Positions 766 to 31,518 of a stretch of 64,000 nt of DNA are shown in pieces. Source of the DNA: Escherichia coli (GTDB taxonomy: Bacteria > Pseudomonadota > Gammaproteobacteria > Enterobacterales > Enterobacteriaceae). Position numbers and translations under genes: made by a program. Every line of letters starts with the position of its first letter. The stretch's first letter is position 1. The stretch is taken from the NCBI RefSeq assembly GCF_003334305.1, contig NZ_QOWS01000009.1, one strand, 5' to 3'. The notes under the pieces are model-generated. The model saw nothing but the letters and a program-made list of their open reading frames with translations. It did not search any database and was not told the DNA's origin.

Positions 766-2169
766 GTGTCACTTTCGCTTTGGCAGCAGTGTCTTGCCCG
801 ATTGCAGGATGAGTTACCAGCCACAGAATTCAGTATGTGGATACGCCCATTGCAGGCGGAACTGAGCGATAACACGCTGGCCCTGTACGCGCCAAACCGT
901 TTTGTCCTCGATTGGGTACGGGACAAGTACCTTAATAATATCAATGGACTGCTAACCAGTTTCTGCGGAGCGGATGCCCCACAGCTGCGTTTTGAAGTCG
1001 GCACCAAACCGGTGACGCAAACGCCACAAGCGGCAGTGACGAGCAACGTCGCGGCCCCTGCACAGGTGGCGCAAACGCAGCCGCAACGTGCTGCGCCTTC
1101 TACGCGCTCAGGTTGGGATAACGTCCCGGCCCCGGCAGAACCGACCTATCGTTCTAACGTAAACGTCAAACACACGTTTGATAACTTCGTCGAAGGTAAA
1201 TCTAACCAACTGGCGCGCGCGGCGGCTCGCCAGGTGGCAGATAACCCTGGCGGTGCCTATAACCCGTTGTTCCTTTATGGCGGCACGGGTCTGGGTAAAA
1301 CTCACCTGCTGCATGCGGTGGGTAACGGCATTATGGCGCGCAAGCCGAATGCCAAAGTGGTTTATATGCACTCCGAGCGCTTTGTTCAGGACATGGTTAA
1401 AGCCCTGCAAAACAACGCGATCGAAGAGTTTAAACGCTACTACCGTTCCGTAGATGCACTGCTGATCGACGATATTCAGTTTTTTGCTAATAAAGAACGA
1501 TCTCAGGAAGAGTTTTTCCACACCTTCAACGCCCTGCTGGAAGGTAATCAACAGATCATTCTCACCTCGGATCGCTATCCGAAAGAGATCAACGGCGTTG
1601 AGGATCGTTTGAAATCCCGCTTCGGTTGGGGACTGACTGTGGCGATCGAACCGCCAGAGCTGGAAACCCGCGTGGCGATCCTGATGAAAAAGGCCGACGA
1701 AAACGACATTCGTTTGCCGGGCGAAGTGGCGTTCTTTATCGCCAAGCGTCTACGATCTAACGTACGTGAGCTGGAAGGGGCGCTGAACCGCGTCATTGCC
1801 AATGCCAACTTTACCGGACGGGCGATCACCATCGACTTCGTGCGTGAGGCGCTGCGCGACTTGCTGGCATTGCAGGAAAAACTGGTCACCATCGACAATA
1901 TTCAGAAGACGGTGGCGGAGTACTACAAGATCAAAGTCGCGGATCTCCTTTCCAAGCGTCGATCCCGCTCGGTGGCGCGTCCGCGCCAGATGGCGATGGC
2001 GCTGGCGAAAGAGCTGACTAACCACAGTCTGCCGGAGATTGGCGATGCGTTTGGTGGTCGTGACCACACGACGGTGCTTCATGCCTGCCGTAAGATCGAG
2101 CAGTTGCGTGAAGAGAGCCACGATATCAAAGAAGATTTTTCAAATTTAATCAGAACATTGTCATCGTAA
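766..2169 (+). CDS. dnaA: Chromosomal replication initiator DnaA (GTG start, 467 aa)
   Basis: Track ORF 754..2169; protein from [13 protein letters not shown] matches E. coli DnaA; AAA+ Walker [11 protein letters not shown]; start moved to the internal GTG. Confidence 0.95.
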
Positions 2170-3274: not shown

Positions 3275-6790
<3,516 letters not shown>

Positions 6791-6808
6791 TGGCGCTAAC
6801 CATGCGAG

Positions 6809-6912
6809 CGTGCCTGATGCGCTACGCTTATCAGGCCTACGAAAATCTTGCAATGTATTGAATTTTCATGATTTTGTAGGCCGGATAAGGCGTTCACGCC
6901 GCATCCGGCAAG
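6809..6912. repeat. REP/BIME-type extragenic palindromic repeats downstream of gyrB
   Basis: Two REP-like palindromes (gcctgatgcgctacgcttatcaggcctac and gtaggccggataaggcgttcacgccgcatccggc) in inverted orientation. Confidence 0.7.
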
Positions 6913-6923
6913 AAGCTATAAGA

Positions 6924-6953
6924 AAAGGGCGGAGATCATCTCCGCCCTTTTTA
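6924..6953 (+). terminator. Rho-independent terminator after the gyrB REP cluster
   Basis: Hairpin gggcggagatcatctccgccc followed by a T-run. Confidence 0.7.
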
Positions 6954-7029
6954 TTTCTGCAATCCGCAATTATCATCCCGCAAATCTATACTTTTTGGGT
7001 CAACACGTAACGCTTTACAGGTGATTATC

Positions 7030-7428
7030 ATGGGGCTTTTTGATGAAGTTGTCGGTGCCTTTCTGAAAGGCGATGCGGGGAAATATCAGGCTATTTTAAG
7101 TTGGGTTGAGGAGCAGGGCGGCATTCAGGTGCTGCTGGAAAAACTGCAAAGTGGCGGCTTAGGGGCCATTCTCTCAACCTGGCTGAGTAATCAACAGGGC
7201 AATCAATCGGTTAGTGGCGAGCAACTGGAATCGGCGCTCGGCACAAATGCGGTGTCCGATCTCGGGCAAAAACTTGGCGTGGATACCAGTACAGCTTCCA
7301 GTTTACTGGCAGAGCAATTGCCGAAGATTATTGATGCGCTCTCACCGCAAGGTGAAGTGTCACCACAAGCCAATAACGATCTGCTTTCCGCAGGTATGGA
7401 ACTGCTGAAAGGGAAACTCTTCCGCTAA
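7030..7428 (+). CDS. yidB: Uncharacterised protein YidB (DUF937-like)
   Basis: Track ORF 7021..7428; start chosen at MGLFDEVVG to give 132 aa; start uncertain. Confidence 0.8.
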   Translation: MGLFDEVVGAFLKGDAGKYQAILSWVEEQGGIQVLLEKLQSGGLGAILSTWLSNQQGNQSVSGEQLESALGTNAVSDLGQKLGVDTSTASSLLAEQLPKIIDALSPQGEVSPQANNDLLSAGMELLKGKLFR

Positions 7429-16970: not shown

Positions 16971-17071
16971 TACATCGTAGCCGATGAGGACGCGCCTGAT
17001 GGGTGTTCTGGCTACCTGACCTGTCCATTGTGGAAGGTCTTACATTCTCGCTGATTTCAGGAGCTATGATT

Positions 17072-17485
17072 ATGCGTAACTTTGATTTATCCCCGCTTTA
17101 CCGTTCTGCTATTGGATTTGACCGTTTGTTTAACCACTTAGAAAACAACCAGAGCCAGAGTAATGGCGGCTACCCTCCGTATAACGTTGAACTGGTAGAC
17201 GAAAACCATTACCGCATTGCTATCGCTGTGGCTGGTTTTGCTGAGAGCGAACTGGAAATTACCGCCCAGGATAATCTGCTGGTGGTGAAAGGTGCTCACG
17301 CCGACGAACAAAAAGAGCGCACCTATCTGTACCAGGGCATCGCTGAACGCAACTTTGAACGCAAATTCCAGTTAGCTGAGAACATTCATGTTCGTGGCGC
17401 TAACCTGGTAAATGGTTTGCTGTATATCGATCTCGAACGCGTGATTCCGGAAGCGAAAAAACCGCGCCGTATCGAAATCAACTAA
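17072..17485 (+). CDS. ibpA: Small heat-shock protein IbpA
   Basis: 137 aa from [20 protein letters not shown]; alpha-crystallin domain. Confidence 0.9.
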
Positions 17486-31354: not shown

Positions 31355-31442
31355 AACTGTGATCGATACTCAACTATGCCCTAAATACGTCAAAATTCGT
31401 GCCGAAATTGCGCGTTCTGCGCGGAACACGTATACTTTCAGT

Positions 31443-31518
31443 GTTGACATAATACAGTGTGCTTTGCGGTTACCAGCCGCAGGCGGCTGATGAAACCTCG
31501 CTCCGGCGGGGTTTTTTG
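31443..31518 (+). ncRNA. istR: IstR-1 antitoxin sRNA (longer IstR-2 isoform would start upstream, near 31370-31380)
   Basis: About 75-nt unit ending in an intrinsic terminator (GC-rich stem plus tttttt at 31512-31517); its 5' 20 nt ttgacataatacagtgtgct is near-identical to 31189-31208 in the tisAB leader, so the two RNAs are complementary; TATACT -10 at about 31432. Confidence 0.6.

Follow-up and report, generated by a model that had tools for sequence, protein, structure and literature searches.

REP/BIME repeats downstream of gyrB and yicN in Escherichia coli: a BIME-1 and the probable relic of a BIME-2-like unit

Two intergenic sites in a 64,000-nucleotide stretch of Escherichia coli DNA (the window, which is ~99% identical to K-12 MG1655 over longer stretches and hence derives from a non-K-12 strain), one behind gyrB and the other behind yicN, raise the question of whether they hold members of the REP/BIME repeat family, of which type these would be and what they might do for the adjoining genes. 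REP/BIME elements are non-autonomous repeats, and their spread is attributed in the literature to the REP-associated tyrosine transposase (RAYT, TnpA_REP), an enzyme acting on these elements. According to the MG1655 annotation and the ORF lists, gyrB ends at 6790 (TAA stop codon at 6788-6790) and yidB starts at 7030, while yicN occupies 42231-42683 with its stop codon at 42681-42683. The next gene, nepI (42894-44084, 396 aa), has been delimited with NCBIfam NF007578 and the RefSeq NepI of MG1655 (1191 nt). All four genes lie on the plus strand, the gyrB/yidB and yicN/nepI pairs are co-directional, and each REP site lies at the 3' end of the upstream gene, in agreement with an earlier note on this DNA which had located REPs at 3' gene ends. 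In our assessment it is highly probable that the site behind gyrB is a BIME-1 and that behind yicN an eroded BIME-2-type unit, both of the enterobacterial REP/BIME family, the former contributing to the 3'UTR of gyrB and the latter largely inert.

The gyrB REPs are placed in the 239-bp extragenic spacer between gyrB and yidB, and the segment 6700-7100 containing it has a 100% match in many complete E. coli genomes, K-12 BW25113 among them. The search with REP consensus sequences that the earlier note had proposed as a check was carried out, and it returned both gyrB REPs with 0 mismatches. One of them is a z1-type REP, the short z palindromic unit (GCC...CTAC), on the plus strand at 6812-6840; its sequence is GCCTGATGCGCTACGCTTATCAGGCCTAC and its first base lies 21 nt past the gyrB stop codon. 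The other is a y-type REP on the minus strand at 6876-6909, inverted with respect to z1, which reads GCCGGATGCGGCGTGAACGCCTTATCCGGCCTAC on its own strand and GTAGGCCGGATAAGGCGTTCACGCCGCATCCGGC on the plus strand, the latter being the reverse complement of the classical REP consensus. This y REP is the same as the consensus published from 356 annotated REPs. The tetranucleotides at the hairpin feet are present in both, as CTAC at 6837-6840 and GTAG at 6876-6879, and a 35-nt L linker of the BIME-1 kind (6841-6875) joins the two REPs. A nhmmer profile made from 63 BIME-1 copies, all of them from other genomes, matched 6811-6910 with E=4.9e-32. With this profile only one BIME unit was found at gyrB, and in the 64 kb of the window no REP was found besides the gyrB and yicN sites.

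As support independent of prior consensus sequences, one genome per species was scanned for a z tail and a y tail with 20 to 50 nt between them, which yielded 135 matches. The commonest linker length was 35 nt (64 of the 135 elements), and among the 81 elements with linkers of 33-36 nt the short z form was present in 74 and the long z2 head in none. A linker consensus, AAGGTTTCTGCAATATATTGAATTTGCACGATTTT, was built from 63 copies in other genomes, and its core (positions 9-28) is 73-98% conserved. The gyrB linker agrees with this consensus at 26 of 35 positions, where copies of the family average 28 of 35, and at 18 of the 20 core positions; its departures occur in the outer portions. In the literature BIME-1 is defined by z1 and y with a long, well conserved L linker, frequently with an IHF site and in single copy, and BIME-2 by z2 and y with a short linker. 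Since the gyrB element has z1, y and the L linker in a single copy, as the published definition describes, it is by its sequence a canonical BIME-1 (RIP/RIB). In comparison to the BIME-1/RIP/RIB elements of Boccard & Prentki 1993, summarised in PMC3333891 (z1-L-y), it shares the short z1, the inverted y and the 35-nt L linker, together with the core TGCAAT(A/G)TATTGAATTT, the single copy and the position at the 3' end of a transcription unit, and it shows no substantive difference beyond the slightly lower agreement of the outer linker and an IHF site that is predicted only. A labelling of the short z REP as 'Z2' was considered and rejected, the long form being the one that the literature names Z2 and BIME-1 being z1+L+y, with which the scan agrees.

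The IHF-type core of the gyrB linker is CAATGTATTGAAT at 6851-6863, or ATTCAATACATTG on the minus strand, and by eye ATTCAATACATTG agrees with the IHF consensus WATCAANNNNTTR at 12 of 13 positions; a search of the L linker for the exact consensus gave no match. IHF binding is known for the BIME-1 family, and for the gyrB copy, with its core one position off the strict consensus, it is predicted. The site is thus a candidate on account of BIME-1 family membership rather than of the 12/13 core match. REPs were not mentioned in an IHF ChIP-seq paper.

Folding has supported the palindromic nature of the gyrB REPs and has separated them from a neighbouring structure. As single-stranded DNA the z1 hairpin reached -9.4 kcal/mol (z -4.0) and the y hairpin -12.2 kcal/mol (z -4.7); with z-scores of -4.0, -4.7 and -4.3 the gyrB REP hairpins behave as the imperfect palindromes expected of the family. 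As RNA, the 104-nt element was predicted to form one long z1:y stem with the L linker as its loop (-42.6 kcal/mol, z -5.5). A further hairpin, AAAAGGGCGGAGAT-CAT-CTCCGCCCTTTT, begins 13 nt 3' of the BIME and is followed by a T tract (6923-6956, plus strand). Its stem is GC-rich with 14 bp, its RNA folds with -23.3 kcal/mol (z -5.95) and runs into TTTTTATTT, and its DNA gave z-scores of -6.3 to -7.0 on both strands. This hairpin is the Rho-independent terminator of gyrB and stands outside the REP family; with an A tract upstream and the T tract downstream, it looks bidirectional. A pattern-based terminator scan had missed it, so the negatives of that scan are unreliable alone and folding was used instead. 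The REP/BIME region that had been drawn at 6809-6953 therefore holds good for the BIME-1 at 6812-6909, while its last third belongs to the terminator.

Comparison across genomes indicates that the element is old at this locus and that E. coli can do without it. Among 5,426 complete E. coli genomes, 4,603 match the window-type gyrB allele over at least 80% of the query. In 699 of the 5,426 (13%), the BIME-1 and its immediate flanks (window 6798-6926) are replaced by an unrelated 36-nt spacer, with no change in the terminator or in the sequence beyond it. A clean insertion or excision of the BIME was considered and rejected, as direct reading of the sequences pointed to replacement; the MAFFT alignment of the two alleles is misleading in the variable part. 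In Escherichia albertii a BIME-1 occupies the orthologous site between the same flanks, with a linker closer to the consensus than that of the window, and this orthologous copy argues that the gyrB BIME is old. Both the BIME-less allele and E. albertii keep the terminator unchanged. As the BIME is missing from 699 genomes, it is dispensable and has no essential role. Like REPINs, the REP doublets mobilised by RAYT, the gyrB element is an inverted doublet that can form one long hairpin, has GTAG and CTAC feet and is polymorphic for presence and absence among strains. It differs from them in that the window contains no RAYT gene and that the locus is occupied in E. albertii, which suggests an old, vertically inherited copy and no recent move.

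A number of roles have been described for REP/BIME elements, which include stabilisation of mRNA 3' ends, termination that is partial and depends in part on Rho, the binding of proteins (IHF, DNA polymerase I and gyrase), and service as targets of insertion sequences. In a 2026 preprint their main role is seen as that of local, context-dependent 3'UTR terminator-stabilisers whose effects are not uniform. The gyrB element would have arisen as a selfish repeat; copies of this kind would have spread through RAYT and afterwards have been inherited vertically. Since it lies behind the stop codon and ahead of the terminator, the BIME-1 is expected to be transcribed within the gyrB 3'UTR, where it could fold either as two hairpins or as the long z1:y stem. 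There it may act as an additional barrier to 3' exonucleases and weakly attenuate transcription before the true terminator is reached, and in duplex DNA the L linker would offer the candidate IHF site. A structural contribution to the 3'UTR together with an IHF site is the likely role of this copy. Stabilisation and attenuation by the BIME may be redundant, since the terminator 13 nt downstream would protect the 3' end on its own. A translational effect has been reported for REPs within 15 nt (<16 nt) of a stop codon, and the gyrB REP, being 21 nt away, is outside this range.

The alternatives for the gyrB site differ in what they would make of the same palindromes. That the palindromes at gyrB and yicN are chance inverted repeats or ordinary terminators of no repeat family has a probability close to nil, and this reading is already refuted. 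It draws its sole support from the genuine terminator at 6923-6956, and it is opposed by the E-value obtained with the independent profile, by the lack of any consensus match with up to 3 mismatches in 100 dinucleotide-preserving shuffles for each of z and y, and by the presence of the REP sequence in every one of the 5,426 complete E. coli genomes, the median number of places per genome being at least 40. It is also extremely unlikely that the gyrB BIME serves specifically for topological control, with binding of gyrase and IHF coupling local supercoiling to the expression of gyrB and yidB. The gyrase binding of REPs, the preferential cleavage of y-type REPs in vivo and the IHF-type site in the L linker would fit such a control, but the strong gyrase binding and cleavage have been reported for BIME-2 and not for BIME-1, so that a REP beside a gyrase gene calls for no special meaning. 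Moreover, the 699 genomes without the element speak against such a control, and as the element is one of many near-identical copies behind unrelated genes, its location behind gyrB needs no special explanation.

A very unlikely alternative holds that the gyrB spacer encodes a minus-strand ES036 sRNA (RF02751), antisense to the gyrB 3'UTR, and that this RNA is the functional unit. Rfam RF02751 (ES036) matches 6833-6875 on the minus strand, where the gyrB L linker scores 44.8 bits against a gathering score of 37.6, and an antisense transcription start site with 'considerable expression' was reported in the main text of PMC7967276 for the yidB-gyrB spacer of MG1655. The 43-nt model, however, corresponds to the BIME-1 L linker, read on the reverse strand, together with the REP foot, and matches any BIME-1 linker: in another E. 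coli genome, three other BIME-1 linkers were matched above the gathering score at the same relative position and strand. As these copies were matched at exactly that position, the hit at gyrB is a repeat match; judged from this comparison, what RF02751 effectively models is the L linker, and a match to it here points to the repeat and gives no evidence of an sRNA gene. According to PMC7967276, the antisense RNA has complementarity to the yidB 5'UTR; it would meet the bidirectional-looking terminator before reaching the BIME, and a pattern scan, which also missed the terminator, detected no sigma-70-like promoter in 6700-7100. A literature search on ES036 returned no paper on the family. RF02751 matches at BIME-1 copies are likely to be misannotated as sRNA genes. 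The y REP and the terminator together are matched by naRNA4 (RF02564) with 47.1 bits, below its gathering score of 59.5; naRNA4 is a y-l-z2 REP transcript, whereas the second hairpin of its gyrB counterpart is the terminator and no z2 REP. The other matches at gathering level in the window are AsdA, the antisense RNA of dnaA (1276-1356, minus strand), the ROSE_2 thermometer (17007-17078, plus strand), istR (31388-31517, plus strand) and tRNA-Sec (48321-48411, minus strand).

The site behind yicN probably belongs to a different BIME type from the BIME-1 of gyrB. A z2-type REP tail, CGTCTTATCAG-CCTAC with one G deleted, is found on the plus strand at 42692-42707 and begins 8 nt past the yicN stop codon. 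It was aligned with four BIME-2 units of MG1655, drawn from a published list, and it matches their z2 tails column for column. A short, S-type linker of 16 nt (42708-42723) follows tail to tail, and its length falls inside the 14-17 nt found at the same position in the MG1655 BIME-2 units. Next comes a decayed y-type REP on the minus strand, ACCGGATGCGGCGTGAACGTCTTATCCACCCGAC (42724-42757), which retains 29 of the 34 consensus bases (nhmmer E=6.9e-5) and carries GTCG in place of the GTAG foot; the consensus search proposed earlier thus finds it with 5 mismatches in 34. These parts point to the relic of a BIME-2-like unit, of which a truncated z2 and a decayed y are left, joined by the short linker. 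With BIME-2 (z2-S-y, gyrase-binding and usually tandem) the relic shares the z2-type tail, the 16-nt tail-to-tail linker and the inverted y, and it stands in register with the units at malE-malF, lamB-malM, efeB-phoH and gmhA-yafJ. It differs in being a single unit and no tandem, in the 5' half of z2, which would overlap the end of yicN and is unrecognisable, and in a y copy without GTAG and palindrome. A proposal that the last codons of yicN (TGG CTG CAT TAA; TGGCTGCAT) represent the z2 5' half (TGCCTGATG) was rejected, the similarity being too weak. At 42670-42691, which aligns weakly to TGCCTGATG, the yicN gene end may overlap an eroded REP.

The y copy at yicN, which is identical in MG1655, does not fold into a hairpin by itself (z +0.66 and +0.48), and all the structure that is left is a stem in which the z tail pairs with the y tail (42692-42740; RNA -21 kcal/mol, z -2.8). 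The earlier statement that a REP cluster follows yicN at 42690-42760 is borne out in so far as a y REP is there, but 'cluster' overstates a single decayed unit; likewise, the description of the REPs as typical palindromes fits the gyrB copies and not the non-palindromic yicN copy. The SCU-482 allele of this y copy is nearer to the consensus by two substitutions than the copy of the window and MG1655, a comparison that would fit with ongoing decay. We consider the relic to be largely inert and non-coding, with the z-tail:y-tail hairpin as its remaining structure. It is rather unlikely that the relic is functional in the sense that its hairpin stalls terminating ribosomes, lowers YicN or attenuates read-through to nepI. 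For such a function one may cite the hairpin itself, its distance of 8 nt in view of the reports that REPs less than 16 nt from a stop codon reduce translation, and the lack of a nepI-strand transcription start site in the spacer in one dataset, which is compatible with co-transcription through the relic. But the hairpin is an inter-REP remnant and no REP palindrome, and the wider yicN region folds no better than shuffles (z -1.3). The stem-breaking changes in the y copy suggest that the structure has not been under selection, and the two further departures from the consensus relative to SCU-482 also go against a function.

The relic has a direct bearing on the start of nepI. The ORF lists give an extended nepI frame which opens at a GTG (42729-42731) within the y relic, as the earlier note had observed when it preferred the shorter start. 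All 396 positions of the NCBIfam NepI equivalog NF007578 (1-396 of 396) correspond to residues 56-451 of the extended ORF, and since this alignment runs end to end, the NepI family begins at the ATG at 42894. The RefSeq NepI of MG1655 has 396 aa. The window-type yicN-nepI spacer is present in only 3,668 of 5,404 matching genomes; in an alternative allele that was sampled, 41 nt of the window (42759-42799) are replaced by an unrelated 839-bp segment that codes for a toxin of the RelE/ParE family and an HTH antitoxin, and the annotated start of nepI is still this ATG. Approximately one third of complete E. coli genomes have this toxin-antitoxin allele. The start of nepI at ATG 42894, for which the earlier note had argued, is thus supported by three independent lines, namely the profile, RefSeq and the replacement allele; it would also follow from the non-coding character of the relic. 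The extended frame from the GTG is spurious. No stop codon interrupts the nepI frame within the 210-nt spacer between yicN and nepI (42684-42893), and the first in-frame stop upstream of nepI is the stop codon of yicN, so that both genes are in the same frame. A stop-free spacer of 70 codons is probably a chance event, with roughly 3-4% expected.

Both loci have been catalogued before. The list of REP-containing MG1655 regions in PMC7967276 (2021) has yidB-gyrB as entry 1 (4e-13) and nepI-yicN as entry 14 (6e-06), and they are ordinary members of a long-known family with nothing new about them. Neither locus is mentioned in the 2026 REP preprint. The annotation of NC_000913.3 used here has no repeat features at the gyrB or yicN locus, nor in the yaaX-yaaA spacer. 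We take the yaaX-yaaA spacer to be one that carries a RIP annotation, and as it too is without a repeat feature, the absence at our two loci is uninformative.

One further idea concerns the ends of the repeats. The left junction of the 839-bp toxin-antitoxin segment at yicN-nepI falls exactly where the y REP relic has its outer end (42758), and at gyrB the entire BIME, together with its flanks, has given way to the unrelated 36-nt spacer in 13% of genomes. That the edges of REPs and their relics are preferred junctions for the gain and loss of gene cassettes is, in our opinion, quite improbable. Were REP ends to direct such exchanges, for instance by way of RAYT cleavage or of recombination stimulated by hairpins, these repeats would organise intergenic variation instead of being passive.

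This study is of use mainly for annotation: nepI should be taken from 42894 and not from the GTG in the repeat, the gyrB terminator should be set apart from the BIME, and the RF02751 ES036 match at this locus should receive no sRNA gene annotation. For the biology of E. coli, the two sites are two more copies of a repeat family that has hundreds of copies per genome.
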